A DNA stretch of 64,000 nt from an uncultured Mycoplasmatota bacterium. Lineage in GTDB: Bacteria > Bacillota_I > Bacilli_A > RF39 > UBA660. Below the pieces are notes generated by a model that was not told where the DNA came from, searched no databases, and saw only the letters and a program-made list of their open reading frames with translations. How positions within the stretch are numbered: the first letter of the stretch is position 1; each line of letters opens with the position of its first letter. Both the position numbers and the translations under genes were made by a program. The stretch lies in contig CAMZCT010000007.1 in NCBI GenBank assembly GCA_947305065.1, positions 542-64,541 on the forward strand, read 5' to 3'. Positions 3,264 to 64,000 of this stretch are shown here, one piece after another.

Positions 3264-5507
3264 ATGAGCAAAACACCAACTATAGACTATATGTTAACAG
3301 ATTTTCGTCATAACTTGGACAGTATGTCTTTTAGTAACTCTAAAAAAGCAGCCATTGGGGAAAAGCTAGATGCTATATTGAACGTTATAGAAGGGACTAA
3401 AGGTGAAAAATTACCTGGTATGGGAGCTTCAGCTGAACCAGAACCAGTTCTTAGCGATGCCGATTCACGTTCAAGTCTTAATATAAACCTATTTAAAATG
3501 TTAGAGCTTTCTTCTGATGATCTAAAAAAGATTAATTTTTCACTGCCAAAATCAAAAATAAATGACATAAATGACATAGTTAAAAAACCACTTATTTTCA
3601 TACGTGGCAAAAAGAAAGAACCGATTGAAACAATTCATGATTATGAAGAATATCTTGAAAGTTTATATAGAGATTATTTATCACCAACAGAGCACACAAT
3701 TGGTACTGGTGCCAGCGAGATAAAAATCAGAGAAAGATATCCTCATGAGGAAGAAAGCGATTCAGATAAATATGAAATAATATATGAAACAGATTCTACC
3801 TATAAAACTGAGGATGAAGTAAAAGAAGCTATAAAATCTCACTACATAGATTATTATGATAAACAGATTAAATCTGATATAGAACCTACTAAAACTTATA
3901 AGAATAAAACTGATTTTATAGAATTACTTGAAAATATAAATAGTTATCAAGTAATTAATAAATCTAATAGTAATGCTATAATTAATGAATTAGTACAAGC
4001 AATAAAAAATGACAATACAGTAACAGAATCAGGAAATATTAAAATAGAAATTCCAGGAACATACATAATGGGACAACATACTACTGTATACACAATAATT
4101 CTTAAACAAGAAACATATGATAGCGTAAAAGATAAACTAAAAGCAATATTTGGTAACAGTACAGGTGATAACCTAACCGTTACCAGAGTTGATGTCGATA
4201 ATTTAACAGTTGAAAGAATAAGACAACGAAACGGTTTTGCTATAAACAAAATAAATAAGAAATTAAATGAAGTAAAAACGATGCAGAACAGTTACACAGC
4301 AACTAAAACTGAAAACGATATGAAAAAACCGTTAGAGAAAATGAATGAAATACTATCATTTGATTCTGCAGATTATTCTGATAGAAGCGAGTTTACAGAG
4401 TTAATAGGAGCATACGTTCCTACCGTTAAGTTAGATGAGTTTTTAGAAGCTGCTAAAGACTTATCCCGCCAAAACTTTGATTTTGATAAAGAATTTAAAT
4501 ATTTTTTACCAGTAGTTATGCCTGAATTACCACCATCTAGCGGAGGCGTTCGTGAAGTACCATCGTATGAAAAGGGATTAATAAAAACATACAAACATTG
4601 CTTTCCAGAATTATTTCATAGAGATGATTATAACTATAAAAAAGACAGGGATAAATATCCTCATGAGAAATTTAAATGGGCTGATGATAACCCGGTAATT
4701 AGTGAAGAAACTAAAAGCGAATATTCTACGTATTACAACAGTCTATATAAAGACTATGTTCATTATAGAAAAAACAATAGACCTGTAAAAAGGATCACTA
4801 AAGCTCCTAGTAAATTAATTAACAAAGTACTAAATTCCAATAATGTTGGCAGAACCTTTAAAGATATTTTACTTGCTATATCAGCAGATTATCATAAACA
4901 CGGTGATGATGGAAGTTGGGCAACTGAACAAAACGAACGTGTTGCAGCATTCTTTGAAAAAGTAAGGCTGAGTGCCATTTTAGCCGCCTGTGGATTAACA
5001 ATAAAGGGCTTAATATCTGGATTTAGTGCTTCAATGCTGGGACCAGCTGCAATAGGTATAGGTGCCGGAACTTTAGTAATGCATACAATAGCTGTTATAA
5101 AAAGAATCTATAATTCATATAGGGAAATTATGGAAGCTAGAGCTTCAATAGCATTTGGTGTTAGAGCAATGAATGAGGCAAACAAATATAAAACTTTACT
5201 AGAAAATCCTAACTTAGATGCGGAAGAGAAGGAAAAATATAAAAAAATTATTAAGGCATACGTTGCATATTATATAGCTAACTTCAACAAGTTTGAAAGA
5301 AGCTATGAAAGATTGACCAAATACGTAAAAGGTTCTTACAAGGAAGAACATGAAGGAATAGTAGACGAAGAAAGAAAATATCGCACAGATCAATTCGCAA
5401 GTTATTGGGCTGAAGCTAAAAGAATAGAAAGTGAATACACCAATTTAAACCCAGATGAACTAGAGAAAAAAATCGATGCAATTAAAAATGGAAGGAAAAT
5501 GTACTAA
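3264..5507 (+). CDS. Hypothetical large protein (747 aa) with central TM hairpin
   Basis: Long ORF with RBS GAGAGGGGA. Gly/Ala-rich TM pair (AAILAACGLTIKGLISGFSASMLGPAAIGIGAGTLVMHTIAVI). No family recognised. Confidence 0.6.
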   Translation: MSKTPTIDYMLTDFRHNLDSMSFSNSKKAAIGEKLDAILNVIEGTKGEKLPGMGASAEPEPVLSDADSRSSLNINLFKMLELSSDDLKKINFSLPKSKINDINDIVKKPLIFIRGKKKEPIETIHDYEEYLESLYRDYLSPTEHTIGTGASEIKIRERYPHEEESDSDKYEIIYETDSTYKTEDEVKEAIKSHYIDYYDKQIKSDIEPTKTYKNKTDFIELLENINSYQVINKSNSNAIINELVQAIKNDNTVTESGNIKIEIPGTYIMGQHTTVYTIILKQETYDSVKDKLKAIFGNSTGDNLTVTRVDVDNLTVERIRQRNGFAINKINKKLNEVKTMQNSYTATKTENDMKKPLEKMNEILSFDSADYSDRSEFTELIGAYVPTVKLDEFLEAAKDLSRQNFDFDKEFKYFLPVVMPELPPSSGGVREVPSYEKGLIKTYKHCFPELFHRDDYNYKKDRDKYPHEKFKWADDNPVISEETKSEYSTYYNSLYKDYVHYRKNNRPVKRITKAPSKLINKVLNSNNVGRTFKDILLAISADYHKHGDDGSWATEQNERVAAFFEKVRLSAILAACGLTIKGLISGFSASMLGPAAIGIGAGTLVMHTIAVIKRIYNSYREIMEARASIAFGVRAMNEANKYKTLLENPNLDAEEKEKYKKIIKAYVAYYIANFNKFERSYERLTKYVKGSYKEEHEGIVDEERKYRTDQFASYWAEAKRIESEYTNLNPDELEKKIDAIKNGRKMY

Positions 5508-5812
5508 TGCAAATTGGGGATATATTAACTTTAGATTACAATGAAAAGTATCTTCTCCTTAATAAAGTTAATTCAAATAAAAAGAATTACTTTCTAGCAG
5601 TTGGTGTATCAGAAGATGAAGAAAAAGTCGATATGGATGACATTACATTCTTTGAAGAAGTAAACGAAAATAATGAAATATATGTTAAAGAAGTATATAA
5701 CAAAGAATTGTTAGACACTCTATCAGATGCTTCAATGTTAAACACTAAAAAAGAAGTAGATGAAATAGAGAAAATACTAGAAGAATATTATAAAAACGAA
5801 AAGAATGATTAA
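5507..5812 (+). CDS. Small acidic protein (101 aa)
   Basis: ATG overlaps the upstream TAA (TAATG), which implies translational coupling. A hairpin and T-run follow the stop. Confidence 0.5.
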   Translation: MQIGDILTLDYNEKYLLLNKVNSNKKNYFLAVGVSEDEEKVDMDDITFFEEVNENNEIYVKEVYNKELLDTLSDASMLNTKKEVDEIEKILEEYYKNEKND

Positions 5813-46814: not shown

Positions 46815-46827
46815 TCTTTCTCTTTTT
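46800..46827. terminator. Bidirectional terminator
   Basis: AAAGAGAAAGA..TCTTTCTCTTT hairpin between the rnhC and holA stops. Confidence 0.6.
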
Positions 46828-47773
46828 AATCACACACTTTTAATAAAAACAATTCTAACGCTAGTTTATCAACTATTTTTCCTTGTTTTATATCATAATC
46901 TAAATCACATAATTCCAATAAATATTTTTCCAATTCCCTCTCTTTATAAGAATAACTATAATTTATTAATTTATCTAACTGAAAAGAATATCTAATATCT
47001 AATATCTTCATAATATCATTCTTATTATGATTCCTAATTAACTTCTTTATTAAATATACATTCCTATATTCATTAGCTAACATAGCCATTAACATAATTG
47101 GACTATTCTTATTTAATAAAAAATCATCATAATATCTAAATATATTCTTAATATCCTTTTCCATTATATAATCTATAAATTTAAAATTATTATCTAATAC
47201 ATTAGAAGCAATAATAAATTTCAAATCACTAATACTAAGTTCTTTCTTAGGATATAACAATAACTTATCTAATTCATTCATTATCAAATCATAATTATTA
47301 TCTAAAGCATTAATAATATAAGTAACTCCATCATAATCAATTTTAATCTTATTTTTTTTCAAATAACCATTAATTATATCTCTTGTTTCTTTCTGATTAG
47401 GATTACTGATCTCGATATAATTATATTTTTCCTTTACTATTTTAGAAACTTTCTTAGTTCCATTAATTTTGTCCTTTAAAACCAGAATAAGTACAGTGTT
47501 TTGATTTGGTTCATTCAAATAATTTAATAAATACTCATCTTTATTAGATGCCTCACTACCCTTTTTATTAGCAGAAAAAGCAGTAACATTTCTAACAACC
47601 ATATAATTTTTATCACCAAACAAGGTAAAATAAGATGCATCATTTAATACGTCATCTAACTCTACTTCATCAAGATTGTAACTAGTATAATTATTATCTT
47701 TTACAATCTTCTTAATCTCATCTTCTAACAATCTATAAGATGTAGAGAAAATAACATTCACACACTTATTCAT
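46826..47773 (-). CDS. holA: DNA polymerase III delta subunit
   Basis: About 315 aa. Size and overall pattern fit HolA/YqeN. ATG at 47773 behind GGTGGAGG. Confidence 0.6.
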   Translation of the reverse strand: MNKCVNVIFSTSYRLLEDEIKKIVKDNNYTSYNLDEVELDDVLNDASYFTLFGDKNYMVVRNVTAFSANKKGSEASNKDEYLLNYLNEPNQNTVLILVLKDKINGTKKVSKIVKEKYNYIEISNPNQKETRDIINGYLKKNKIKIDYDGVTYIINALDNNYDLIMNELDKLLLYPKKELSISDLKFIIASNVLDNNFKFIDYIMEKDIKNIFRYYDDFLLNKNSPIMLMAMLANEYRNVYLIKKLIRNHNKNDIMKILDIRYSFQLDKLINYSYSYKERELEKYLLELCDLDYDIKQGKIVDKLALELFLLKVCD

Positions 47774-51060: not shown

Positions 51061-51240
51061 TTATCTATATACTTTCTTCAATATTTTAACATAATCATCT
51101 GGAAGTCCTAAAAAAGCCTCATCTATTTCCATTTCATCTAAATTATAAGTAGTATAAGTATTACCACCAGTTATTTTTTCAATCTCTTCTTCTAACAATC
51201 CAAACGAAGTAGAATATAAAGCAAATATATTATCTTTCAT
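51061..51240 (-). pseudogene. Diverged 5' fragment of holA fused to unrelated sequence
   Basis: IFALYSTSFGLLEEEIEKITGGNTYTTYNLDEMEIDEA aligns with the holA N-terminus VIFSTSYRLLEDEIKKIVKDNNYTSYNLDEVELDDV. It diverges after about 40 codons and stops at codon 60. Confidence 0.65.
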
Positions 51241-52007: not shown

Positions 52008-52826
52008 ATGATATTAAGTTATAATACAATTAAAAAACTTACAGATAAAAACCTATTAATTGAAAATGCTAATGTTCAAAATATTCATTCCTCATCATAT
52101 GATGTCACCGCCGATAAATATATTTTAAAATTTAAAAAAAGTAAAAAGCCAATATCATTTATAGATGCTGAAGAATTAAATACCATGTACGAAGAAATAA
52201 ATATAACTACGGGATATACAATCAAACCAGGAGAAACTATTTTAGTAGTATTAGAAGATATATTTAATATTCCTAATAATATTTGTGGTTCAATAAGGGG
52301 TAGAACTTCCCTTAATAGACTTGGTTTAACAATAGCTACTCAGCATTTAAACCCTGGATTTAAAGGAAAGCTAAATTTAGTAGTAACTAACAATTCTATT
52401 AATTCCTACATTATTACCCCTAAAATTCAAATAGCTCAAGTACTATTTGAAAAACTAGATAGGAAAGTAAACAAAAAACAATTATATTCAAATAAAAAGA
52501 AATCAACATATCAAAACAAAGACGGCCGCCAAGGCTCAATGATTTACTCAGACTATATTGGAAAAGTAGTTAGACATTTTAAAGGCAATTACTATTTTAT
52601 AGAAGATATATGTATGGATTCTGAAACAAAAGAATACACAATTATCTACAAAAATCTATATAATCGTGAAGATTCTAATATATGGGCAAGACCAGCAAAA
52701 ATGTTTTTTGAAGAAATAGACGAAAATAGAGTTGATAATATAACCAAACAAAAGCATCGTTTTGAACTAGTCGATGATTTAACAATTGATTATACAAAAG
52801 AAAACAAACAAAAACTTGATAATTAA
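52008..52826 (+). CDS. dCTP deaminase / dUTPase-fold domain fused to a DUF1653-like domain
   Basis: N-half: SSSYDV, IKPGETILV, GRTSLNRLGL, NPGFKGKLNLVVTN, IAQVLFEKL (Dcd family). C-half: VRHFKGNYYFIEDICMDSETKEYTIIYKNLY..NIWARPAKMFFEEI (DUF1653 pattern). Own RBS and terminator. Confidence 0.75.
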   Translation: MILSYNTIKKLTDKNLLIENANVQNIHSSSYDVTADKYILKFKKSKKPISFIDAEELNTMYEEINITTGYTIKPGETILVVLEDIFNIPNNICGSIRGRTSLNRLGLTIATQHLNPGFKGKLNLVVTNNSINSYIITPKIQIAQVLFEKLDRKVNKKQLYSNKKKSTYQNKDGRQGSMIYSDYIGKVVRHFKGNYYFIEDICMDSETKEYTIIYKNLYNREDSNIWARPAKMFFEEIDENRVDNITKQKHRFELVDDLTIDYTKENKQKLDN

Positions 52827-53510: not shown

Positions 53511-53995
53511 TTATTCATGATTCAAATCATATAATTGTCTACTAATTCTTTCTTTAAAAATGTCAATCAAATCATTCGGTTCATAATGATAATCATAATT
53601 AAACTCTTTACCACTACTTGTTTTACTTCCATGATGTCCTACTTTTAATACATCACTAGCAGGTAAATTATATTGATTCGTTATCTCTTTTTCTGTAGTA
53701 CTTGATGCATCTCCCATAAACATAAATTTATAACCATTTAGTTCTGTATAAATAACATTACTATTATCATTTTCGTTATCATATTCTTTGGTTTGTAAAA
53801 AATAGAGTTTGTTATTATCTATATTTAATTCTTTAATACATGAATAATATTTAATCTTCTTTTAATCCAATACTTTGATTAGTTCTTGCTCTAAGTCATT
53901 AAATTCACCACAATTAAATATTACTTTTTTACTTTAAAATTATTTACTAAGTTAATAGCTTCACCCATATGATCATAATCTCCATGTGGTGACAT
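53511..53995 (-). pseudogene. comEC: comEC 3'-end copy A (decayed and truncated)
   Basis: Begins MSPHGDYDHMGEAINLV. Has a frameshift near FKV(K)K and an in-frame TAA (VLD*KK). GDASSTTEKE..LKVGHHGSKTSSGKEF then diverges into unrelated sequence. Confidence 0.75.
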
Positions 53996-54014
53996 ACATT
54001 TATGCATACGGATT
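53993..54014 (-). repeat. Type-1 flank (AATCCGTATGCATAAATGYATG) abutting copy A
   Basis: The same 22 nt abuts copy B at 57254-57275. Sequence beyond it differs. Confidence 0.7.
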
Positions 54015-54149
54015 TTTATGTAAAAAAAAAACTATCTTTTTAGTTTTTTTCATTTATTTGAGTTAAATAGCCTTCTTTTGTAGATATATATCTATAGATT
54101 ATATCTTTATAGTTATTACACTCTTATCATCTACAACTACTCTCGTTTT

Positions 54150-54506
54150 TTAATGTGTCCTTGAAATAGAATATGATATAGTCTCATCTGACATATCTTT
54201 ATCAACATAGACAAGTGAAACTGTATCATCTGTAAAGCAATGCCACTCCATCACAGGAATGCCTCTAGTAGATGCTTGGCATTGTGCCTCTGTATCATTT
54301 TCAGTAGTAAATACTAATTCACAATCTTCATTTTCTTCAAATGCCATGTTATAACCGAATGGTGTATTTACATTATATTCTTTGATAGTAAAGCCATCTT
54401 TCCCCATCTTTTTTAGCACTTCATTTACTTTTTTTCTAAATTCCTCATTTCTTTCTCTTTCACCTGAAAACATTTCACTTCTCATGAACATAACAACTTT
54501 AGCCAT
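54150..54506 (-). CDS. Hypothetical protein (118 aa)
   Basis: ORF with RBS GGAGGT. A hairpin plus T-run lies at 54023-54050. Confidence 0.45.
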   Translation of the reverse strand: MAKVVMFMRSEMFSGERERNEEFRKKVNEVLKKMGKDGFTIKEYNVNTPFGYNMAFEENEDCELVFTTENDTEAQCQASTRGIPVMEWHCFTDDTVSLVYVDKDMSDETISYSISRTH

Positions 54507-54553
54507 ATCATAATACCTCCAAACTTATTATAACATATCTTTTAACATTTGTA

Positions 54554-55124
54554 TCACACAAATTCATATTCTCTAGCAATTATTCTATCATCAGAACAGT
54601 ATTTAATAACACATTCATTATCTTGTTTACAAATAATTATACCTACTGTATCATTCTCTTCTATAGTTTTAATATTCTTATCAATATAATTCATATAAGT
54701 CATAATTTGACCTGTGTGTTCTTTTTTTAATTCAGTTACTTTTAATTCAATTACTACATAACATTTATATTTAATATTATAAAGAAGTAAATCAATATAA
54801 TTATATCTATCATCTAATTTTATCTTATATTCATTACCAACATAATTTTGTACCCAATGGGTACAATTTTTCATCACTAAATATTTCATAAAATTTTCTC
54901 ATTTTATACAAATTACTTACTTTATATTTTTTACCAACTTCTAGGACTAATTTTTCTGAGTATTATTTAATAACATTTTCCCCATACTCTTTTCTAGCTT
55001 GACTCAAAAGTTTACCTATTTCGAAATAAACGCTAACTTTATGTCTGTCCTTTGAATAGTCTTTAGCCTTATCATATATTTCGCTTTTTATCAATTTTTC
55101 TTTTATCTCATTATAATAATTCAT
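54554..55124 (-). pseudogene. Decayed DUF1016/YhcG-type PD-(D/E)xK nuclease
   Basis: N-part MNYYNEIKEKL..YGENVIK, then TAA, then YSEKLVLEVGKKYKVSNLYKMRKFYEIF. Then a frameshift or internal deletion. C-part YIDLLLYNIKYKCYVVIELKV..GQIMTYMNYID..VGIIICK. Confidence 0.7.
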
Positions 55125-55343
55125 ATTAATACTTTAATCATCTTTTTTTCATTAATTCTTTCATATATACCTCCTTTAAATAATTAAAAAAGTATACCCC
55201 CTTAAAGGTATACCCGTATCATACATACTTCTATTTTGCCATTAGAAATATATGCTATCGACCTAATTGTCATATAAAAAGTTGGCAAATTATTTTATAC
55301 AATAATATTATATTAAAAAAGACTAGATAAAATCTAGTCCCTA

Positions 55344-56474
55344 TTATCTTTTAGTTCTTCCCTCACGATTAACATCAAATACTTCCGGTATAGCATTTCT
55401 AAAATCGTGTTTTTCGCTTCTATTATTTAATGCTGGTGGAATAACTTCATCAATCTTTTCCTTATTGTTTTCTTTGATTGCTTTCATAACTTCTAAAACA
55501 ATATCAGCAGCATAATCAGTAGAACACATATTTAAAATGTCAACAAGATCAGCATATAATTCTTCTTCTGATTTTAATGGATTTGCCGATTTTAGATAAC
55601 CCATTAATAATTCTGCTCTTTGAATAGAATTTAATACTGCACCATCCTGCTTTCTATCTCTTCCTCTATAAACATAATAACCACTATCAAGAATAAATGA
55701 ATTTAGTATAAAGTCATATAAACCTTTAGTATCTCTCGTTTTTTTTACAAATTCATCCATTTCTTTTTTATATTTTTTTGTTCTAAATAAATATATTATC
55801 TTTTCAATTAAAATTTTTGGTTTCCTAGCTGCTACAAGTTCTTCTATAATAGAGTCAACACTCTTTCCTCTACCTGTTTCTTCATTTATTTTACTTAAAG
55901 CAGAAAGAGTTTCATTGCTATCAGTAACTATATCTTCTAATATTTTATGATTTAAAACACAATTTTTATCATTTTCATCACTAAATTGTTTTATTGCTCT
56001 TGCAAGTTTTTCTTCAAATTCTCTTGGTTTTGCAAGAACAGAAATTTCTAACACTTTATCCAAGAAACTTTTTTCTTCATTTTTTAATATTGCAATTACG
56101 TTAGCAAAGAATCCGCCATCATTTAATTCTTCGCAAGAGTCAAGTAAGCAATTGCAAGTTTCCATTATTTCCTTAGTTACATAATAAGGATATGAAAGGA
56201 ATGTTCCATAATGTACGCCCTTAGCAGTATTATAGCTACCAATAAATCCTGTTGGAATAGCTGTAAAAGTTTCAATATTGATTCCTAAAAGGCCAAATAA
56301 ATAAGTAATTGCCGCAAAATTAATGATACTTTCCTTATCTGGTGTTAAAGTTGCTGTTGATAGTCCAAACAAATGATTTAAATCATCCATCTTACAGCCT
56401 CGATACTCTAATCTATAAATTCCTTGATTATCTCTTTTAAGGTCACATTCTTGTAATACTTTAAAAAACTCCAT
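55344..56474 (-). CDS. Hypothetical protein (376 aa), cassette cargo
   Basis: Intact ORF. Its start overlaps the stop of the 86-aa membrane ORF. No family recognised. Confidence 0.55.
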   Translation of the reverse strand: MEFFKVLQECDLKRDNQGIYRLEYRGCKMDDLNHLFGLSTATLTPDKESIINFAAITYLFGLLGINIETFTAIPTGFIGSYNTAKGVHYGTFLSYPYYVTKEIMETCNCLLDSCEELNDGGFFANVIAILKNEEKSFLDKVLEISVLAKPREFEEKLARAIKQFSDENDKNCVLNHKILEDIVTDSNETLSALSKINEETGRGKSVDSIIEELVAARKPKILIEKIIYLFRTKKYKKEMDEFVKKTRDTKGLYDFILNSFILDSGYYVYRGRDRKQDGAVLNSIQRAELLMGYLKSANPLKSEEELYADLVDILNMCSTDYAADIVLEVMKAIKENNKEKIDEVIPPALNNRSEKHDFRNAIPEVFDVNREGRTKR

Positions 56475-56721
56475 TTTCCCACCTCAGTTTTTTTATTATA
56501 ACATAATATTCTATTTCTTGTCTATCGCAGCTTGAACTTTTCACTACATCGAAAGAACATACCATTAATAATAATGCGAATATGTATAAAATAATATTAC
56601 TATTTGTAAATGCCATTAATATGAATAAACCACATCTAATTACTCTACCAATTGCTAAAAAGAATTCTAAGCTGACATAATATTCAACTTTGTATTCATT
56701 TTTTATTTTTTCATCATTCAT
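56461..56721 (-). CDS. Small two-TM membrane protein
   Basis: Two hydrophobic helices. An upstream ATG (MNFEDVKK..) is out of frame, so the N-terminus is possibly damaged. Confidence 0.4.
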   Translation of the reverse strand: MNDEKIKNEYKVEYYVSLEFFLAIGRVIRCGLFILMAFTNSNIILYIFALLLMVCSFDVVKSSSCDRQEIEYYVIIKKLRWENGVF

Positions 56722-56799
56722 ATCAAAGTGTTTACTTATAAATTCTTCAAAGTTTTTTTAACATCTTCAAAATTCATATTATCACCCATATAAATTATT

Positions 56800-57268
56800 A
56801 ATATATTGTCTTAATTATTAAAATATTATTTAATTTAAACATAATACTACTATTTATATCTGTTCTATATATTTTAGATTCTTTTTTTTAAATATCATCA
56901 GCTGTTTCACCATTATATAGTCCTTTGTATCCAGCATTATGAAATCTGGCTAAGTCTTTTACTCCGCTATTAACTGCCGTTTTATTTAAATTATAATTAC
57001 CTTTTCTAGCTTGATTTCTTCTATATAGTCTTTTCTCATCTTCAATATCCGTTTGTAAAAAATATAATTTATTTTTATCGATATTTAATTCTTTGATACA
57101 GGAATAATATTTTATTTTCTTTTTATCTAATACTTTAATTAGATCTTGTTCTAGATCATTATATGGTCCACAATTAAAGATTACATTCTCTACTTTAAAA
57201 TTATTAACTAAATTAATAGCTTCTCCCACATGGTCAAAGTCTCCATGTGGTGACATGCATTTATGCAT
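56800..57268 (-). pseudogene. comEC: comEC 3'-end copy B (chimeric)
   Basis: MHKCM-SPHGDFDHVGEAINLVNNFKVENVIFNCGPYNDLEQDLIKVLDKKKIKYYSCIKELNIDKNKLYFLQT, then ~53 unrelated codons and a stop at 56888. A degraded ..SKIYRTD..IMFK.. remnant of the gene end follows at ~56825-56885. Confidence 0.7.
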
Positions 57269-57275
57269 ACGGATT
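57254..57275 (-). repeat. Type-1 flank abutting copy B
   Basis: AATCCGTATGCATAAATGCATG immediately 5' of TCACCACATGGAG. Confidence 0.7.
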
Positions 57276-57307
57276 TGAGCAAAGAAAAAAGATTACATAA
57301 CGTAACC

Positions 57308-59023
57308 TTAATCTAATGTCTGATGTGCATTTTTAATATCAGCATTTGCCATTTCTAGTTGTCTTCTTTTATCTAAAAAGATATTTATTATCTCTTCTGG
57401 CTTTTCCACCGTATATCCTTGTTTTCTAGCATAATCAACCCAATATGGAGATTTTAATATTTTTTCAAATTCACTATCTAAAGTTTTTGTCACTATATCT
57501 ATACAATCTATTGCAGTTTTTGGAGCATTAACTGATATTTCATCAATATGGCTCATGATTCTTCCTAAATACGGAATCAATTTATCTCTATTGAAATGTT
57601 TTTCAAGTAACTCAGGTGCTACATCTATATAACCATTATTTATTGTATAAGCTAATTCTAGAATACTTTTTAATATTTTAGAATCATCATATCTACTTTC
57701 AAATAATTCTAAATTTTTTTCAATTTTTTCTACATTATTTAATAAACATTTTTGACAATCTACTACTACAATAGGAATATTAAAATCTTTTGCTGCTCTT
57801 AAACTTTCAAGCCAAATTTGATCACTACTAAAATCTTCCCTTGTTTTTAAATATACTATATAATCCGGATTAATCCTTTCTAACTTACCATTTATTACTC
57901 TTCTTCTAGAACGATAAACTTCATTATTCGTAAATCTTGTGTTATTTATTAAACTATCAGGTGTCCTAAATTCAACATCAGCAATTAATTTTTTTTGATG
58001 AAATGGATTTGTAATATTCAAATCTTTATATATTCCACCAGTGCCTAGATCATTTGATCCTAATAATGATAAATTATTTTCACCAAATTTTCCAAATCCA
58101 AATAAACAATGTTTTACATGTGTTTTTATACTGCTACTGCTAATAATGGAATTACACATATAATCAGTAGCAATCCTTGGACGATTCCATGCATCTTTAA
58201 AATTTTCAGGTGTTTCGTATTCTGTTGCCATACCATATGAATAAATACACATATAAAAATCTAATCCAGCATCATATATATTAATACCATCAACGTTATC
58301 AATTTGTTTTTCATTTGTTGGTGCATAAAATTTTTCATCATATATTTTTGAGTAAAAATTTCTAAGAATAGAATCTATATTAATTAAAAAACTTATATTC
58401 TCATACACAATTCTATCGCAGCCTTTGCCTTCAATAATATTTTTAATATCAAATAAAAAATCTTTTCCCTCTGATTCAGGTAAATTTTCTATATCCTTAC
58501 AATATCTCATATATAAATTATAAGCTTTATCGTATGACATTCCATATTTGTTTAACAATAATATATTTGGATCATTTGTTTCATTATTATTACTATTCTT
58601 GTTATCTCTAATTATTTGTAAATTATTTAGATCATCAACAGAATTAATATCAAAATAATTACCTCCACTACTAATTACAAATAATAAATTTTTTATTTGA
58701 GACTTGCTTAAGTCATTTTTACTAACATCATCTATTAAATTTGAAAATTGTTTATTTTTTAAAAAATGATAATAATTTGCACATAATGAAATCCAATCTT
58801 GATTTTCATTTTCAGCATAATTAATAATCTTTGATATATTTTTAATATTTTGTTCAGATAAGTTAATTATAATTTCTTGTGCTTCTTTATTTAAAGCAAA
58901 CGTTTCTAAAACATATAAAGGTAAATATTTTATGGTAATTTCATTTATAAAACCACTTATTAGTGTTTTCTCTGTTTCTTTGTTGCTGGTATATAAATAA
59001 TTTATTACACTATTAATATCCAT
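57308..59023 (-). CDS. Hypothetical protein (571 aa), cassette cargo
   Basis: Intact ORF starting 42 nt after the end of copy C. No family recognised. Confidence 0.6.
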   Translation of the reverse strand: MDINSVINYLYTSNKETEKTLISGFINEITIKYLPLYVLETFALNKEAQEIIINLSEQNIKNISKIINYAENENQDWISLCANYYHFLKNKQFSNLIDDVSKNDLSKSQIKNLLFVISSGGNYFDINSVDDLNNLQIIRDNKNSNNNETNDPNILLLNKYGMSYDKAYNLYMRYCKDIENLPESEGKDFLFDIKNIIEGKGCDRIVYENISFLINIDSILRNFYSKIYDEKFYAPTNEKQIDNVDGINIYDAGLDFYMCIYSYGMATEYETPENFKDAWNRPRIATDYMCNSIISSSSIKTHVKHCLFGFGKFGENNLSLLGSNDLGTGGIYKDLNITNPFHQKKLIADVEFRTPDSLINNTRFTNNEVYRSRRRVINGKLERINPDYIVYLKTREDFSSDQIWLESLRAAKDFNIPIVVVDCQKCLLNNVEKIEKNLELFESRYDDSKILKSILELAYTINNGYIDVAPELLEKHFNRDKLIPYLGRIMSHIDEISVNAPKTAIDCIDIVTKTLDSEFEKILKSPYWVDYARKQGYTVEKPEEIINIFLDKRRQLEMANADIKNAHQTLD

Positions 59024-59064
59024 TCTATCACATCCTATATTTATTATATCATGCTAATTTATAA

Positions 59065-59640
59065 TTAAGGCAAACAAGTTCCTATTTTCAACTTATTATC
59101 TTTAATCTTAAACATAATGCTTCCATCCTCGTCTGTTCTATATATTTTAGAATTATCTAAATTTTCTAATTCTTCTTTATTTGGATGACCATACCTATTA
59201 TTCTATCCAACACTAATAATTGAATATTTAGGATTAATTTCATTTATAAATTCTTTGCTGCTACTTGTTCTTGATCCATGACGGCCTACTTTTAACACAT
59301 CTATGTCTGGTAAATTATATTTAGAGAGTATTTCTTTTTCAGTAGTTGTAGATGCATCTCCCATAAACATAAATTTATAACCATTAATCTCTGTATAAAT
59401 AACATTACTATTATCATTTTCGTTAGCATATTCTCTTGTTTGTAAGAAATATAATTTATTCTTATCTATATTTAATTCTTTAATACATGAATAATATTTT
59501 ATCTTCTTTTTATCTAATACTTTAATTAGTTCTTTTTCCAAATCATTGTGAGGTCCACAATTAAAAATTACTTTTTCTACTTTGAAGTTTTCTACTAGAT
59601 TAATAGCTTCTCCCATATGATCAAAATCTCCATGTGGTGA
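59065..59640 (-). pseudogene. comEC: comEC 3'-end copy C (single in-frame TAG)
   Basis: SPHGDFDHMGEAINLVENF..FMFMGDASTTTEKE..LKVGRHGSRTSSSKEF..IISVG, then TAG, then NNRYGHPNKEE..SKIYRTDEDGSIMFKIKDNKLKIGTCLP and stop. Confidence 0.8.
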
Positions 59641-59661
59641 TTGTCAAAAAGTAAGTCGAAT
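59641..59661 (-). repeat. Type-2 flank (ATTCGACTTACTTTTTGACAA) abutting copy C
   Basis: Identical 21 nt precede copies D and E. It contains an in-frame TGA relative to the comEC frame. Confidence 0.75.
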
Positions 59662-59671
59662 AATTATCAAA

Positions 59672-59693
59672 TAAAAAGACTCATATAAGTCTC
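59672..59693 (-). terminator. Intrinsic terminator of the 401-aa cargo gene
   Basis: AGACT..AGTCT hairpin plus TTTTTATTT on the minus strand. Confidence 0.5.
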
Positions 59694-59694
59694 T

Positions 59695-60900
59695 TTATTT
59701 GATACTAGAAGCAGATTTTTCATTTTCATTAGAATCAAGCGTTGATATCTTATTGTCTGTTGTTTCACGTATTTTTTTCTTCATGGCCTGGTATAATTGA
59801 GTTGATAATTCTCCGTCATAATACATTTCTTCAAGTTTTTTATTAAATATTCCCTCTTGTTCTCTTAAATCAACAATAGAGTTAATATCTTCATTAAACA
59901 TAATCCCTGTATACATAATAATTTGATTAATCATTAGTGTAAGATAGATTCTTTGTATTTGTATTAACGACTCAATTCTCTTGTCAAATGAATTTGTATT
60001 TGCCTCATTGCCTAATGCACTTTGTTTTTCTGCAAAACTATTTCTTTTGTCAATCAAATTTTTTATATCATTTAATAAACATTTATCCAAATCCAAAAAA
60101 GTAAAATCTTTGATAGATTGCAATTTATTTAAATATTTAAGCTCATACATAGGCAATGATGAAGTATTGTTTTGATAATAATATGCCATCATCAATTTGA
60201 TACAATCACTACAATCAGATATTTTGAAAGTCTCCAAATTAATTTCATTCAAACCATCTTTTTTATATATTTCTTTGTAGACATCTAATTCATCCGACAT
60301 CATTCTCAACACCTGATTTTGTGGTAGCAACTCAATAAATTCTTCAAATTTTTTTAGTCTTTTTTTTCTTTCTTCTAATTCATCATTAATTTTTATTAGA
60401 ATTTCTTCTTGATTACTAAATTCTATTTCTTTTTTAGGATGTAATATGTCTTCACCAACTATAACTTTCTCAACTACATAATTACCTACTGGAATTCTTT
60501 CAGCTACCCATTCATCGCCCATAAATCCATTATTATAATGTCCCTCTAACGAACTTGTTATCCATGGTTTGTGAACATCTAATCCATCAGTTGATATTTT
60601 GTATACAATTCCAACAGCAGGAACAGCAATTTTTAAAGATCTTTCTCCGATTCGAACATTATTATTTAATGGAGTTCCATCATTCATACTGACTGCAGCA
60701 TATGCATTTGTTGCTACTTCTTTGTAATCACTCATATATACTCCGTATTCATTTCCATCACCAACTGTTTTTCTTCCTTGTTCATCATATTTTGGTGGAT
60801 TTGGAGGAGTTAAATCTATTCCATATATTTGTTTTTCTTTTAATATTTTTTCATTAACAATTACGCCTCTATACAAAAATTCTGGTTTTGCATTTTCCAT
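59695..60900 (-). CDS. Hypothetical protein (about 401 aa), cassette cargo
   Basis: Intact ORF. ATG at 60900 is preferred to the GTG at 60909. Globular N-domain (FLYRGV .. GVYMSDY .. GDEWVAE) plus a helical C-half. Confidence 0.6.
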   Translation of the reverse strand: MENAKPEFLYRGVIVNEKILKEKQIYGIDLTPPNPPKYDEQGRKTVGDGNEYGVYMSDYKEVATNAYAAVSMNDGTPLNNNVRIGERSLKIAVPAVGIVYKISTDGLDVHKPWITSSLEGHYNNGFMGDEWVAERIPVGNYVVEKVIVGEDILHPKKEIEFSNQEEILIKINDELEERKKRLKKFEEFIELLPQNQVLRMMSDELDVYKEIYKKDGLNEINLETFKISDCSDCIKLMMAYYYQNNTSSLPMYELKYLNKLQSIKDFTFLDLDKCLLNDIKNLIDKRNSFAEKQSALGNEANTNSFDKRIESLIQIQRIYLTLMINQIIMYTGIMFNEDINSIVDLREQEGIFNKKLEEMYYDGELSTQLYQAMKKKIRETTDNKISTLDSNENEKSASSIK

Positions 60901-60942
60901 TATTATCACATCCTAAAAATATTATATCAAACTAATTCTTAA

Positions 60943-61519
60943 TTATGGTGAACATGTTTCTATTTTTAATTTATTATTTTTAATTTTAATCATAATACTT
61001 CCATCTTGATCCGTTCTATAAATTTTACTATTTTTTAAAACATCTAATACTTCTTTATTTGGATGTCCATATCTATTATTTTTTCCAACACTAATAACAG
61101 AATATTTAGGCTTTATTTCATTAATAAACTCTTTACTACTACTTGTCTTAGATCCATGATGCCCAACTTTTAACACATCTATATTGGGTAAATTATACTT
61201 ATTTAAGATTTCTTTTTCAGTAATAGTTGATGCATCCTCCCATAAACATGAATTTATAACCATTTAATTCTGTATAAATCACATTGCTATTATCATTTTC
61301 ATTGTCATATTCTTTTGTCTGTAAAAAATATAATTTGTTATTATCTATATTTAATTCTTTAATACATGAATAATATGGTATCCTCTTTTTATCTAATACA
61401 TTGATTAATTCCTTTTCTAAATCATTATAAGGTCCACAATTAAAAATTATCTTTTCTACTTTAGAATTATTTACTAAATTAACTGCTTCTCCCATGTGGT
61501 CGTAGTCTCCATGTGGTGG
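60943..61519 (-). pseudogene. comEC: comEC 3'-end copy D (frameshifted)
   Basis: PPHGDYDHMGEAVNLV..GYKFMFMG, then a +1 insertion (GGAGGATGC versus GGAGATGC), then (D)ASTITEKE..LKVGHHGSKTSSSKEF..GKNNRYGHPNKEVL..YRTDQDGSIMIKIKNNKLKIETCSP. Confidence 0.8.
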
Positions 61520-61580
61520 TTGTCAAAAAGTAAGTCGAATTTAAAACACAAAAAAGAACTATCAATATTGATAATTCTTA
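61520..61580 (-). repeat. Type-2 flank plus conserved terminator hairpin abutting copy D
   Basis: AAGAATTATCAATATTGATAGTTCTT hairpin, T-run, then TTTAAATTCGACTTACTTTTTGACAA. Homologous to 63679-63738. Confidence 0.75.
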
Positions 61581-61740
61581 TTAAATCAAACTATCTTCAT
61601 CAATCAAAGGAACAATATCTATGGCTGGTTCTTCATACGGATGTACCATTCTTAATTCTTCAATTTTTCTATAGGAATAGTAATGAATATCTTAATCTTA
61701 TTTACATTAATACTCATTTTATCTCCTTTTAAAATTAAAT

Positions 61741-62271
61741 TTAATTTTTTCTATTAAGTATGCCGACTCTAACTAAAGCATCTTCAAGATACTCACCTTT
61801 TTGAATAATAATTTTTTCATTTGGTTGTTTCATAAATTCTTCAAAATCAGGCTCTATCTTAGTATCAACTCTTTTAATAAATTCATCATTTGCTCCTCTA
61901 TTTTTTGCACGTATTTTATAGTCTTCTTTACATGCAGGATCTGGATAAGCTAAGATAAAATCTATTCCATAGTTTCTCATCTCCTCAAATGGCATACAAG
62001 GTGCAATAAGAATTATGTCATGTTTTCCACTTTTCTCTTCTTCTAAAATAGCATCATAATAATTTTTTGGCCATTCAGGATTTATCGCTCTTACAGTTGA
62101 TTTTAAGCTTTCTTTATTTTTAACTGCTTTTTGTTCTTCAGTAAGAATATATTTGTAATCTCCACTAGCAAGTTCTGTAATATCATCATATTTAGTTGTT
62201 AAATATGTCTTTCCTGCACAGATCCATGCACTAATTATGATTGGTCTTTTATTAAACTTTGTATTGCTCAT
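61741..62271 (-). CDS. P-loop NTPase / nucleotide-kinase-like protein, cassette cargo
   Basis: Walker A AWICAGKT near the N-terminus. About 176 aa. RBS AAAGGAGA. Confidence 0.55.
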   Translation of the reverse strand: MSNTKFNKRPIIISAWICAGKTYLTTKYDDITELASGDYKYILTEEQKAVKNKESLKSTVRAINPEWPKNYYDAILEEEKSGKHDIILIAPCMPFEEMRNYGIDFILAYPDPACKEDYKIRAKNRGANDEFIKRVDTKIEPDFEEFMKQPNEKIIIQKGEYLEDALVRVGILNRKN

Positions 62272-62282
62272 ATTTTTCTCCT

Positions 62283-62777
62283 TTATTCAATAAAATCTAT
62301 TGGACTTACAATATTAATAAGTGGTAGTTTTTCTTGTGTTCCGAGCAATGTTGTCTCATTATCATCTACCATATATACTATATCATTATCTTTTATATAG
62401 TCTTTTATATACTCAGCTTTTAAATATTGTTTTTCAGCAATTACTTTAACATTATTTTCTCTACGAGGAATAATAATTACTTTATCTTTATCAATAAAAT
62501 AACAATAATCTTCGATCCATCTTAATTTATCTTCCTTTTGATAATTATAACTACAAAAACTAAGAATGTACGTTTTAGCTCCCTTGTCTTGGAGCCTTTT
62601 CATTATTTCAATAATTGTTTTAATTGGTCTTTTAGAATAGAAGAAACCTTCTTCTAATTTATGTTTCTTCTTATGCATTTCCATACTTGCACAGGTACCA
62701 TCCATATCCCAAAATATTTTTACTTCATTTTTTCCTTCTTCTAAATATTTGATAATTCTTTTTTCTATATCAGTCAT
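62283..62777 (-). CDS. HAD-superfamily hydrolase, 5'(3')-deoxyribonucleotidase-like
   Basis: Motif I IFWDMDGT and later MVDDN. Small cap-less size. Start uncertain (ATG 62777 or TTG 62795). Confidence 0.55.
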   Translation of the reverse strand: MTDIEKRIIKYLEEGKNEVKIFWDMDGTCASMEMHKKKHKLEEGFFYSKRPIKTIIEIMKRLQDKGAKTYILSFCSYNYQKEDKLRWIEDYCYFIDKDKVIIIPRRENNVKVIAEKQYLKAEYIKDYIKDNDIVYMVDDNETTLLGTQEKLPLINIVSPIDFIE

Positions 62778-63102
62778 ATAAATCGTCACAAACAAAGTAT
62801 ATCATTGATTATCTTCAATTACAATTAATTAATTATATTTTTCCTTTATATTCTTTACTAAATTCTACTAAAAGAACATTTATTTTTTTTGAACAATTCA
62901 ATATATTTCATGATAATCTACGTATTTGTTTTTTTAGTTAATCTAATATTTAATTTAATAAAATGATCATTATCATTTATTTTAACATCAGTTATTCCTT
63001 TTATACGCAATAAGAAATTTTTAAGTTCTATATTCGCAATATCATCTAGTTTAATTATCATAAAAAAATTTCACCTAATAGAATTTATAATGTTTGAGTT
63101 TT

Positions 63103-63678
63103 TTATGGACTACATGTTTCAATCTTTAATTCATTGTTTTTAATCTTAAACATGATACTACCATCTTAATCTGTTCTATATATTCTAGATTTTTCTAGAT
63201 TGTCTAATACTTCTTTATTTGGGTGACCATAACGATTTTTCTTTCCAACACTTATAATTGAATACTTTGGATTCATTTCGCCAATAAAATCTTTACTACT
63301 ACTTGTCTTAGAACCATGATGTCCTACTTTTAATACATCTATGTCTGGTAAATTATATTTACTTAGTATTTCTTTTTCAGTAGTAGTAGATGCATCACCC
63401 ATAAACATAAATTTATATCCATTTAGTTCTGTATAAATAACATTACTATTATCATTTTCGTTATCATATTCTTTTGTCTGTAAAAAATATAATTTGTTAT
63501 CATCTATATTTAATTCTTTAATACATGAATAATATGGTATCTTCTTTTTATCTAATACTCTTATTAATTCAGTTTCTAATTCGTTAATTTCTCCGCAATT
63601 AAATATTACTTTCTCTACTTTAAAATTATTAACTAAATTAATAGCTTCTCACATATGATTATAATCTCCATGTGGTGA
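63103..63678 (-). pseudogene. comEC: comEC 3'-end copy E (two in-frame stops)
   Basis: SPHGDYNHM, then TGA, then EAINLVNNFKVEKVIFNCGE..FMFMGDASTTTEKE..LKVGHHGSKTSSSKDF..GKKNRYGHPNKEVL..RIYRTD, then TAA, then DGSIMFKIKNNELKIETCSP. Confidence 0.8.
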
Positions 63679-63738
63679 TTGTCAAAAAGTAAGTCGAATT
63701 TAAGGCAAGAAAAAAGAACTATCGAATTGACAATTCTT
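63679..63738 (-). repeat. Type-2 flank plus conserved terminator hairpin abutting copy E
   Basis: AAGAATTGTCAATTCGATAGTTCTT hairpin, T-run, then CTTAAATTCGACTTACTTTTTGACAA. Confidence 0.75.
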
Positions 63739-63741
63739 AGA

Positions 63742-64000
63742 TTATTTTATTCTTTTTGTACTACTCCATTTTCTTGCACCATTTAAAATTTTTTCAGAAT
63801 CATTTAATAGTTTTGTTGGATATTTTACATATTCAAAAATATCATCATGAGAATAATTTTCTAACATATAATTTCCAATTGTGAATGCTATAGGGTAATT
63901 ATAAGGTAATGAATTAAAATCATTTATTTCTTCGTTAGTTGCATTTATCTCTACTTTTGTAAATTCTTCTGGATTTCCTAGGTTAGTAGCTAATGCTTCC
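63742..64000 (-). CDS. 3' end of a further cargo gene (5' part outside window)
   Basis: Open minus-strand frame from the window edge: ..NYPIAFTIGNYMLENYSHDDIFEYVKYPTKLLNDSEKILNGARKWSSTKRIK. TAA at 63742-63744, followed by the conserved hairpin. Confidence 0.55.
   Translation of the reverse strand, partial: EALATNLGNPEEFTKVEINATNEEINDFNSLPYNYPIAFTIGNYMLENYSHDDIFEYVKYPTKLLNDSEKILNGARKWSSTKRIK

Follow-up and report, generated by a model that had tools for sequence, protein, structure and literature searches.

Displaced comEC 3′ ends in uncultured gut Bacilli read as a stack of attR-type scars of temperate-phage serine recombinases

The question raised by this locus is how the last third of a core competence gene can come to stand several times in a row, with different genes between the copies and no recombinase beside them. 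In the 64-kb stretch of DNA from an uncultured Mycoplasmatota bacterium analysed here (the window, 64,000 nucleotides), five copies of the 3′ end of comEC are present on the minus strand. A preliminary description had proposed that a single exact position within comEC repeatedly received cassettes, each of which supplied a new 3′ end and shifted the previous one downstream. This proposal is supported by the present analysis, and the junctions of the copies point to the large serine recombinases (LSRs) of temperate phages, proteins with Resolvase, Recombinase and Zn-ribbon domains.

The five copies, found essentially where they had been placed before, share 66–88% pairwise nucleotide identity (in gap-free registers), and all are broken, by lesions that had already been listed. 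Copy E (63103–63672), a displaced end, carries an in-frame TGA and a TAA, copy D (60943–61513) a +1 frameshift and copy C (59065–59634) a single in-frame TAG. In copy B (56800–57247) a fragment of a Bro-N gene takes the place of the middle (56856–57043), and copy A (53511–53986) is the outermost, truncated and most decayed. The earlier impression that decay grows with distance from the live gene is roughly borne out. The cargo, like all features given here on the minus strand, differs from unit to unit. Between copies E and D (cargo span 61741–62795) there are an NT5C/HAD-like 170-aa gene (62283–62795) and a 176-aa gene matching phrog_4182 (61741–62271). Between D and C lies a 401/404-aa gene without a family match (59695–60909), and between C and B a 571-aa gene (57308–59023), whose cassette recurs in another species (L074) at 94% nucleotide identity. 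The unit between B and A (54150–56721) holds an 86-aa gene, a 376-aa gene, a decayed yhcG/DUF1016 nuclease (54554–55124) and a 118-aa gene. A displaced 5′-end stub of holA of about 45 codons (51061–51240; repeat family D14) is also present, and the conserved, live holA (46826–47773) borders the variable region on its other side. holA had been expected directly downstream of comEC; in this clade yhcG (DUF1016) often intervenes between the two genes.

The live gene is found on a metagenome contig (L001) that is identical to the window over 12,260 nt (0 mismatches) and carries the locus 8.2 kb beyond the window end (window coordinate = 72272 minus L001 coordinate). The cargo gene upstream of copy E, of which the window contains the 3′ part (63742–64000), is completed there to 219 aa (L001 7871–8530). 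In the extension, comEA and an intact 672-aa comEC are followed by two more copies, F and G, and then by the window's five. Copy F is a 196-aa open frame, while copy G consists of the last 153 nt of comEC and nothing more. An intact comEC thus heads the array, and insertion into this gene is not contradicted on that point. Upstream of the array sit ftsW, comEA and comEC, and an integrase is absent there.

The copies had been described as starting at the same nucleotide. They are indeed in register and their boundaries coincide on alignment, but part of the shared start is phage sequence. The live gene reads ...ATTACT|CATGG; it lacks the TCACCA that precedes CATGG in the copies, and the homology of the copies to live comEC begins at CATGG. 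TCACCA is the end of a conserved non-comEC sequence of 27–29 nt that exists in two versions, as conservation reaches 23 nt further upstream into a 29-nt junction of two types. By its match to phage sites, this junction is the P-arm half of an attP belonging to a family of temperate-phage LSRs. The type-1 arm before copy E (63673–63701; AAATTCGACTTACTTTTTGACAATCACCA) is identical to the P half of the attP of phages L084/L086, and with the CA at 63671–63672 and copy E it makes up an attR-type site. Type-1 arms also precede copy D (61514–61542; 1 change compared to the consensus, with a terminator hairpin before it) and copy C (59635–59661; ATTCGACTTACTTTTTGACAATCACCA), so that copies E, D and C all have the L084 arm with 0–1 changes. 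Copies B (57248–57276; AAATCCGTATGCATAAATGCATGTCACCA) and A (53987–54015) are preceded by a type-2 sequence, a related arm of equal length with the same flanks. The window junctions, consisting of P arm, core and comEC B′ arm, thus have the composition of attR.

A unit runs from a comEC 3′ end (~570 nt, 189 codons) through 1–4 accessory genes in the same orientation and a terminator hairpin to a P arm; the arm is preceded by a short conserved spacer resembling that at the phage right end. In 86% of cases the hairpin stands upstream of the P arm and is followed by a T-run, like a terminator. Of the class-1 junctions across loci, 39/42 match type 1 or type 2, and the arm retains 22–29 of its 29 bases even beside copies that are less than 67% identical at the amino acid level. 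Copies of a second class start instead at the NRYGHP codons, with a junction of their own. In total there are three distinct junction types, all on a CCA-NN-TGG core.

The phages provide the counterparts of these junctions. On the related phage contig L084, outside the window, positions 3540–4961 encode a 473-aa LSR, homologues of which have PF00239, PF07508 and PF13408, and attP lies 20 nt downstream. The attP of L084/L086, ATTCGACTTACT-TTTTGACAATCACCA-CA-TGGAGGTATGTGGTT-AGTAAGTCGAAT, has two symmetric 27-nt arms, and its left half equals the type-1 junction. Five phage attPs centre on CCA-CA-TGG, with outer inverted repeats of 10–14 nt; the sites measure about 50–56 bp and consist of two inverted half-sites around a central dinucleotide. 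A prophage with the L084/L086 integrase shows the attL TTAATAATAACT|CATGGAG|P′ at a contig end. The phage with integrase P0031 occurs in a free form, with integrase, attP and lysin, and in an integrated form, with integrase, attL and the comEC 5′ part; comparison of the two places the crossover within CATGGAG. In six or more distinct host backgrounds, a truncated 5′ part of comEC lies beside integrase P0003. In all, attL sites were seen in L085, L092, L094–L099, L117, L119 and L122, and an attR in L102; one prophage right end runs from lysin through hairpin, P arm and CA into a comEC 3′ end. The attB is the CA dinucleotide in ...ACT|CA|TGGAGA..., in the stretch that encodes the H-G-D-x-D-H metal motif of ComEC. 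As phages of this family insert at the H-G-D codons and normally split the gene, displaced copies begin with an attR-type hybrid site. Behind the one live attB of this genome stand seven units with attR-type boundaries. As far as the sites themselves show, the array is a stack of attR-type scars of temperate-phage LSRs.

The family of the recombinase can thus be identified from the P-arm half-site at each copy, although the window encodes none. It had been noted before that no recombinase gene is visible in the window, and a tblastn search with the LSR found none in the 64 kb, in L001 with its 8-kb extension or in 80 array loci; no LSR is known in this genome. The 91 cargo ORFs match 37 Pfam families, and the 25 commonest of these include no recombinase. 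As a recombinase is encoded neither in nor beside the units, these are non-autonomous. No phage site was found that matches the type-2 or the type-3 arm exactly.

The array is not peculiar to this genome. Of the related species-level loci, 55 have 3 kb or more of sequence after comEC, and 42 of these contain one or more extra comEC copies; the arrays differ in cassette number and cargo, in line with the comparison that had been proposed. Cassettes replacing the last 189 codons of comEC are thus seen in most of the related species examined. The 91 cargo ORFs, of which 90 are co-oriented with comEC, form 47 unrelated clusters. Contigs break just after comEC in 22 of 80 cases; assemblies tend to do so because of the repeats, which calls for caution with assemblies of these genomes.

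Units and the comEC 3′ third evidently pass between species, as sequence comparison indicates in several ways. Between species the last third of comEC is about 80% identical, against about 40% for the remainder. Across 77 live comEC genes, amino acid identity jumps at the site from 0.24–0.47 to 0.71–0.86, and identity at third codon positions climbs as well. How similar two 3′ ends are shows no correlation with how similar their 5′ parts are (rho −0.06). A cassette with 94% nucleotide identity is shared by hosts whose comEC 5′ parts, like those of the whole locus set, reach only about 40–50% amino acid identity. The gene is a mosaic, with 5′ two thirds that are inherited vertically and a 3′ third that circulates with mobile units. 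Within one genome, identity between the live and a displaced copy is also mosaic (100/100/100/77/73% along the copy in L053, 81/92/100/100/100% in L037), which shows gene conversion or homologous recombination.

How units without a recombinase enter such an array is most likely explained by phage LSRs moving them in cis through recombination between attL and alternative attR sites. A phage would enter at the live attB and generate attL and a new attR. At excision, integrase and directionality factor could join attL to an attR of matching type anywhere further along the array, and recombination with a distal attR would take the intervening units out within the phage genome; at 1.5–3.3 kb, these are small enough to be packaged. 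In the next host, recombination of attL with the inner attR would leave a unit behind, so that comEC would be whole again with an imported 3′ end and the resident end would be displaced. Units would then be reshuffled, homogenised or deleted as the ~570-nt direct repeats undergo gene conversion and RecA-dependent recombination, and for the first unit a single illegitimate join at the terminator T-run would suffice. Scars of phage LSRs, cassette shuttling through alternative attR sites and homologous reshuffling, taken as one explanation, are given a probability of roughly 0.6. In one locus, L103, an intact comEC is followed by yhcG, a 147-aa gene, a hairpin and a complete attP (P|P′), the sole attP among all chromosomal loci. 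A cassette joined to a complete attP is the joint that cassette shuttling predicts; it is a single example, which may have arisen by other routes. No phage genome with an internal attR, comEC tail and cargo was found, a scan of IMG/VR for the comEC tail returned nothing relevant, and in the free phage forms the lysin directly adjoins attP. Nor was any lysogen seen whose prophage is followed by an array. Moreover, the same cargo and terminator are joined to a type-2 arm in L001 and to a type-1 variant in L074 and L026, a switch that is not explained by shuttling alone.

This switch, which occurs inside conserved flanks, is among the observations that would be accounted for if homologous recombination alone spread the units and the P arms were passive remains of prophages that decayed long ago, in one event or a few. 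Neighbouring tails would then recombine through RecA to release units as circles, and these would enter other genomes by a Campbell-type single crossover or by a double crossover after transformation or transduction, with the 570-nt tail as portable homology. The mosaic identities in L053 and L037 and the lack of a recombinase at array loci fit such a course, and a Campbell insertion could account for L103. However, the complete attP beside a cassette in that locus rather points to integrase chemistry, the P arms are far better conserved than the displaced tails adjoining them, and there are three distinct junction types that each lie on the CCA-NN-TGG core. Besides, boundaries fall exactly at CA also in loci whose live and displaced tails share no more than 55–70% nucleotide identity (L024, L059, L077), a level at which a RecA-dependent crossover is unlikely. 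Homologous recombination as the sole agent is therefore considered unlikely, though it keeps roughly one chance in five.

Less probable still, at something like one chance in eight, is that the units are integron-like satellites, autonomous integrase-less circles with one attR-type site (P arm, CA, comEC tail), inserted in trans by the integrase of a helper phage into the attL of a lysogen, or into attB by non-canonical pairing. Recombination of attL and attR with a directionality factor would repair comEC and leave attP. L103 matches the exact product of a circle's attR with attL (attB, tail, cargo, P|P′), and all units share a uniform backbone of tail, cargo, hairpin, conserved spacer and P arm. 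As with integron cassettes, the cargo consists of small, diverse single genes in one orientation, and circles with one attR would readily be made by homologous recombination between tails. Yet ordinary arrays have P|B′ and not P|P′ after each unit, with 1 chromosomal attP only. For characterised phage LSRs (the phiC31 and Bxb1 integrases), attR and attB are not known to be a permitted pair. Finally, recipients with attL have a split comEC, so that uptake of circles by transformation is impossible.

The displaced tails could also be thought of as silent cassettes, kept like pilS as gene-conversion donors that vary the outward-facing nuclease domain of ComEC, with the cargo incidental. Conversion tracts between live and displaced copies would agree with this, as would the 28 of 43 displaced class-1 copies of other species whose frame stays open for 180 codons or more past the boundary, in most cases as far as the regular stop, and even at 42–66% identity. 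Open frames are, however, also expected in recently displaced ends, and identical tracts in any direct repeats. All five window copies are broken, increasingly so with distance from the live gene, and nothing shows selection on the copies themselves. As the type-1 junction places a stop codon two codons upstream of the copy, the copies are not expressed as such. A reservoir as the reason for the array is therefore very improbable; alongside movement by phage LSRs, open displaced tails might additionally feed gene conversion of this exposed domain. An ordinary tandem segmental duplication of the comEC-proximal block followed by divergence, suggested by the direct and regularly spaced repeats, is refuted by the cargo, unique to each unit as had been claimed, by the foreign phage att sequence before each copy and by the same architecture with other cargo in dozens of species.

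Beyond movement by phage LSRs, a broader view is put forward tentatively, with the odds leaning somewhat against it: an integron-like, phage-driven system in which the choice of alternative attR sites by LSRs moves recombinase-less units with ready-made 189-codon comEC ends. If true, the last third of a core competence gene would be a mobile module across a large clade of uncultured gut Bacilli, temperate phages would pick up and deposit units lacking a recombinase, and the locus would be an expandable store of accessory genes, with candidate defence genes among them. It would then be a concrete case of attR choice by which a serine integrase possibly captures and delivers host-side DNA. Serine integrases are in wide use for genome engineering, and the locus offers natural sets of attP, attB, attL and attR of at least two sequence types, probably three.

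Compared to known systems, the targeting of comEC by serine-recombinase prophages is not new per se. The preliminary description knew of no element family that targets comEC and builds such an array; the targeting is known from the streptococcal prophages Phi1207.3/Tn1207.3 and Phi10394.4, with Tn1207.1 in celB, while no array is described for them (PMC4260502). Their insertion site in comEC is a GA dinucleotide and the gene is simply interrupted (PMC4260502). In both systems a serine recombinase uses one specific dinucleotide inside the coding sequence, here CA, but a replacement 3′ end is not described for the streptococcal prophages (PMC4260502), whereas here a live gene stands before up to seven displaced, cargo-bearing tails. 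A prophage splitting a competence gene is thus familiar, and the new outcome is a growing array of small cassettes that keeps the gene intact.

Stacking of integrase-less, att-bounded elements at one chromosomal att site, termed site-specific tandem accretion, is known from the CIMEs of the ICESt1/ICESt3 family and from the SCCmec composite islands at rlmH. SCC elements are moved by large serine recombinases, and accreted elements without an integrase are mobilised when a related integrase-bearing element uses alternative att partners. The comEC units resemble these in stacking at one site, which they share with integrase-bearing phages. The repeats of CIMEs and SCC elements are att cores of about 15–30 bp at the extreme 3′ end of a gene, and their units are usually many kb long and ICE-derived. 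In contrast, each comEC unit has ~570 nt (189 codons) of replacement coding sequence, 1–4 genes and phage attP half-sites. The islands at ssrA in Dehalococcoides reportedly stack in tandem with a repeated gene 3′ end, and each is said to have its own recombinase, of the serine type, with a short RNA-gene end as repeat. The comEC units carry no recombinase and rebuild a protein-coding gene. The Dehalococcoides study describes site-specific integration of horizontally acquired islands at the single-copy ssrA, a mechanism that its authors call common there (PMC3146451).

Lastly, the array resembles integrons in its length, in its small, mostly single-gene and co-oriented cassettes of diverse and often unknown function, and in the joining of new cassettes at the end beside a fixed site. 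It is no integron: an IntI tyrosine recombinase with attI and Pc is not found, and ftsW, comEA and comEC lie upstream instead. Unlike integron cassettes, each comEC cassette has a gene fragment, and in place of attC sites (R''/L''/L'/R' boxes, GTTRRRY) its boundaries are LSR P arms on CCA-NN-TGG.

On the minus strand of the window, the last ~190 codons of comEC are found five times. Copy A (53511–53986) is frameshifted and truncated, copy B (56800–57247) has its middle swapped for a piece of a Bro-N gene, copy C (59065–59634) contains a single stop codon, copy D (60943–61513) a frameshift and copy E (63103–63672) two stop codons. Their starts are spaced 1.9–3.3 kb apart, their nucleotide identity is 66–88% in a gap-free comparison, and the cargo genes between them bear no relation to one another. 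Both the five broken copies and the unique character of the cargo had been recognized in the preliminary description. An exact-protein look-up identified L001, a metagenome contig that is identical to the window across 12,260 nt and continues for another 8.2 kb. This extension past position 64000, proposed earlier, shows that the array is headed by an intact comEC. Read in the comEC direction, L001 starts with ftsW, comEA and a live comEC of 672 aa, encoding the DUF4131, Competence and Lactamase_B domains. These are followed by two cargo genes, copy F (an open frame of 196 aa), an intact yhcG (DUF1016), a 143-aa gene, copy G, consisting only of the final 153 nt of comEC, a Bro-N gene, a 219-aa gene, and copies E, D, C, B and A. 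Altogether, the locus contains one live comEC and seven displaced tails, over which the suspected increase of decay with distance from the live gene roughly holds. Strain-level polymorphism of the array was not seen, the unit order being the same in other samples. The middle of copy B (56856–57043, minus strand) is 87% identical to L001 7414–7601, part of a Bro-N cargo gene that is intact and located four units upstream of copy B, which points to recombination between units of one array.

Alignment with the live gene indicates that the comEC homology of the copies begins at CATGG. The shared boundary described earlier is thereby retained, but the preceding TCACCA, taken for comEC at that time, is not part of the gene: all copies read TCACCA before CATGG, whereas ATTACT stands at this place in the live gene. 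Each copy is preceded by a non-comEC junction with a constant length of 29 nt, which in turn follows a hairpin and a T-run. There are two versions: type 1, AAATTCGACTTACTTTTTGACAATCACCA, precedes copies C, D and E, and type 2, AAAT(T/C)CGTATGCATAAA(C/T)G(T/C)ATGTCACCA, precedes copies A, B and F. An Rfam search over the whole array gave no match, indicating that the junctions are not a known RNA. A second class of copies (class 2), seen across the related loci described below, starts at GTTGG, within the V-G-K-N-N-R-Y-G-H-P codons and 153 nt short of the stop, and has a junction of its own (type 3), ending in TATGTACTAACTACTYAATACCA-GT-TGG.

The origin of the type-1 junction was revealed by a search of IMG/VR, in which it matches a phage contig 20 nt past the gene of a 473-aa large serine recombinase (LSR). 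The phage site is a symmetric sequence of 56 bp, ATTCGACTTACT TTTTGACAATCACCA CA TGGAGGTATGTGGTT AGTAAGTCGAAT, recognizable as the attP, with the array junction as its left (P) half. Four related integrases (65–73% identical) have attPs that share the core CCACATGG and differ in their outer arms; one of these attPs resembles type 2. A prophage whose integrase has the type-1 attP terminates in TTAATAATAACT, CATGGAG and the P′ arm, i.e., an attL inside comEC. Another phage, with integrase P0031, is found both in a free form, with integrase, attP and lysin, and in an integrated form, with integrase, attL, a 495-aa comEC 5′ part, comEA and ftsW, which together fix the crossover within CATGGAG. At the right end of one prophage, the order is lysin, hairpin, P arm, CA and comEC tail. 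A further integrase, P0003, adjoins a truncated comEC in no fewer than six host backgrounds and is found twice in other, non-comEC genes with a metallo-beta-lactamase fold, exactly after the ITHGH codons (L100 11436–11600 and L101 11436–11606). This integrase seems to recognize the nucleotides encoding the metal motif, which would provide it with secondary sites in paralogous folds. From these integration structures it follows that ordinary lysogeny splits comEC at the H-G-D codons, and every displaced tail of the array opens with a site of the hybrid composition typical of attR. The precise insertion site postulated inside comEC can thus be equated with an LSR attB, and the recombinase family, missing from the preliminary description, was identified through the phage attP.

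Exact type-2 and type-3 arms and a symmetric type-3 attP yielded nothing in IMG/VR scans. An LSR origin of type 3 is suggested by its CCA-GT-TGG core and architecture only, and the corresponding integrase would be expected to have a P′ arm mirroring TATGTACTAAC. Before some class-2 copies there is a compound junction (L026 13260–13346 and 15965–16051, L067 13466–13552), in which ~27 nt of decayed HGDxDHMGE codons separate a P arm of type 1 or 2 from the type-3 arm that follows, with equal spacing in all three cases.

Several other candidates for the junction, namely Xer/dif-like sites, IS200/IS605 ends, group II intron ends and a homing endonuclease with YhcG as driver, were abandoned after the match to the phage attP. 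A role as promoter was rejected as well, as the full TTGACA-16-TATAAT is present in copy E only and type-2 arms lack the −35 element. At the copy E junction (63658–63685, minus strand) this motif is perfect, its −35 being derived from the phage P arm and its −10 due to an Asp-to-Asn change affecting the HGDYDH codons. The common lysin P0160, followed as a route to prophage right ends, gave unrelated tyrosine-integrase phages. The comEC-targeting phages also carry an RVT_1 reverse-transcriptase gene beside tail genes (L102 7755–8813; L116 10565–11758), an arrangement typical of diversity-generating retroelements.

When species-representative genomes were scanned with the full ComEC, 80 loci emerged, their whole-protein identities to the query being 42–59%. 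They belong to uncultured gut and rumen Bacilli, filed under such names as Tenericutes, Erysipelotrichaceae, or CAG-type Clostridium or Mycoplasma. The comparison with related genomes suggested earlier could draw on 55 loci that extend at least 3 kb past comEC: 42 of them have one or more extra tails, and the cargo varies. In 22 of the 80 the contig ends at most 1.3 kb past comEC, as expected when repeats break assemblies. A type-1 or type-2 junction is present on 39 of 42 full-start copies, keeping 22–29 of its 29 bases even beside tails whose amino-acid identity to the query is below 67%. The cargo ORFs, of which 90 out of 91 are co-oriented with comEC, form 47 clusters. Most frequent are yhcG/DUF1016, with 25 ORFs, and Bro-N, with 6 to 8 according to the method used; they match PDC-S02 and PDC-S13, respectively, which are candidate defence families of PADLOC, and most other clusters are singletons. 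Of the 37 Pfam families hit by the 91 cargo ORFs, the 25 most frequent include no recombinase, integrase or transposase, and tblastn with the LSR detected no LSR gene in any array locus, extending to all of them what had been noticed for the window.

The tail of comEC has a history different from that of the rest of the gene. In pairwise comparisons of 77 live genes, amino-acid identity in all 30-residue windows is 0.24–0.47 upstream of the site, vs 0.71–0.86 from the site to the stop; at identical residues, identity at the third codon position goes from 0.56–0.76 (mostly 0.61–0.69) to 0.62–0.78. Similarity of live tails does not track that of the 5′ parts (Spearman −0.06, 325 pairs). While ComEC 5′ parts share a mean of ~40% amino-acid identity across loci, the gene of the 571-aa cargo is 94% identical in nucleotides between this genome and locus L074, and the 153 nt of tail before it 89%. 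As judged from these identities, the comEC tail is horizontally exchanged and units move between species. Within genomes, live and displaced tails have long identical tracts beside diverged ones, a mosaic such as gene conversion or crossover between repeats leaves behind; homologous exchange among tails is thus apparent as well. The idea that the native end is to be found in the outermost displaced copy had no general support (rho 0.05 between displaced-copy and 5′-part similarity), and outermost tails are therefore not claimed as such. In one lysogen without extra copy, a 45%-identical tail lies directly behind attR. The cassette of tail end, 571-aa gene and terminator is found at L001 13055–15024, L074 13041–15013 and L026 17672–19635, with a type-2 arm in this genome and a type-1 variant in the two other species; the change of type falls within the conserved spacer CTTTGCTTAAAT.

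Sequence comparison thus shows the site as an LSR attB, the junctions as P half-sites, and the units as stacked behind one live attB. The earlier proposal of repeated insertion at one site, each time with a replacement 3′ end, was essentially right, with the movement step being inferred. What has to be explained is the entry of a unit that has no integrase and has comEC sequence instead of a P′ arm at its left end. Plain attP × attB recombination is excluded as its source, since the live gene has B′-type sequence after the core. The route that would need canonical LSR reactions only is an alternative choice of partners. In a lysogen of an array-bearing host, attL would pair with a distal attR, skipping the nearest one, and attR, tail and cargo would be exported within the phage genome. 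In the next host, attL × inner attR would deposit tail, cargo and P arm, rebuilding comEC and displacing the resident tail. The unit size of 1.5–3.3 kb fits a packaging limit. A joint as predicted, with a cassette followed by P and P′, is present once: in the chromosomal locus L103, intact comEC, yhcG, a 147-aa gene and a hairpin precede a complete attP (P arm, CA, P′ arm; 5590–5645), after which come an esterase gene, an HTH gene and a decayed attR. No phage genome bearing a cassette was found, an IMG/VR scan for the comEC tail giving one irrelevant match (30% identity), nor was a lysogen seated on an array among the contigs examined.

Counter to this phage shuttle, still the most probable reading, are these two absences and the one cargo with different arm types. 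Spread by homologous recombination only, to which the exchange among tails would correspond, is nevertheless rather unlikely. In L103, the live attB lies 1.4 kb upstream of attP in direct orientation, and excision of the comEC tail and its cargo as a circle should require no more than the integrase. Insertion of cassette circles in trans as the general route is judged more doubtful still. Much less probable again is that the tails, mosaic as they are, serve as a gene-conversion reservoir.

A stub of the holA 5′ end (51061–51240, minus strand; ~45 codons, ~70% nucleotide identity to live holA at 46826–47773) lies 3.3 kb upstream of intact holA, separated from it by unrelated His_Phos, GNAT fragment and membrane protein genes. 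It seems that on this other side of the variable region, too, a gene end was displaced, by a second rearrangement. Just outside copy A, a gene with phage-like domains fuses a dCTP deaminase-like part to DUF1653 (52008–52826, plus strand); within the variable region, only this gene and a 163-aa ORF near holA run on the opposite strand.

In tandem accretion and in cis-mobilizable elements, integrase-less elements are stacked at one att site and moved by a related element via alternative att partners; SCCmec composite islands display a like stacking and mobilization. The array looks similar to an integron but has none of its defining parts. Serine-recombinase prophages are known to insert at one dinucleotide of streptococcal comEC (PMC4260502), where the gene is merely interrupted, in contrast to the cassette arrays described here. 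Dehalococcoides islands at ssrA are likewise reported to enter one gene by site-specific recombination (PMC3146451). In the literature searched on comEC with serine recombinases or attachment sites, nothing closer was found. No description was found of a combination of phage LSR half-sites with mini-cassettes, each restoring 189 codons of a protein gene, and with clade-wide replacement of that gene segment, and we rate the array as a variant of site-specific tandem accretion with a putative cassette-movement step.
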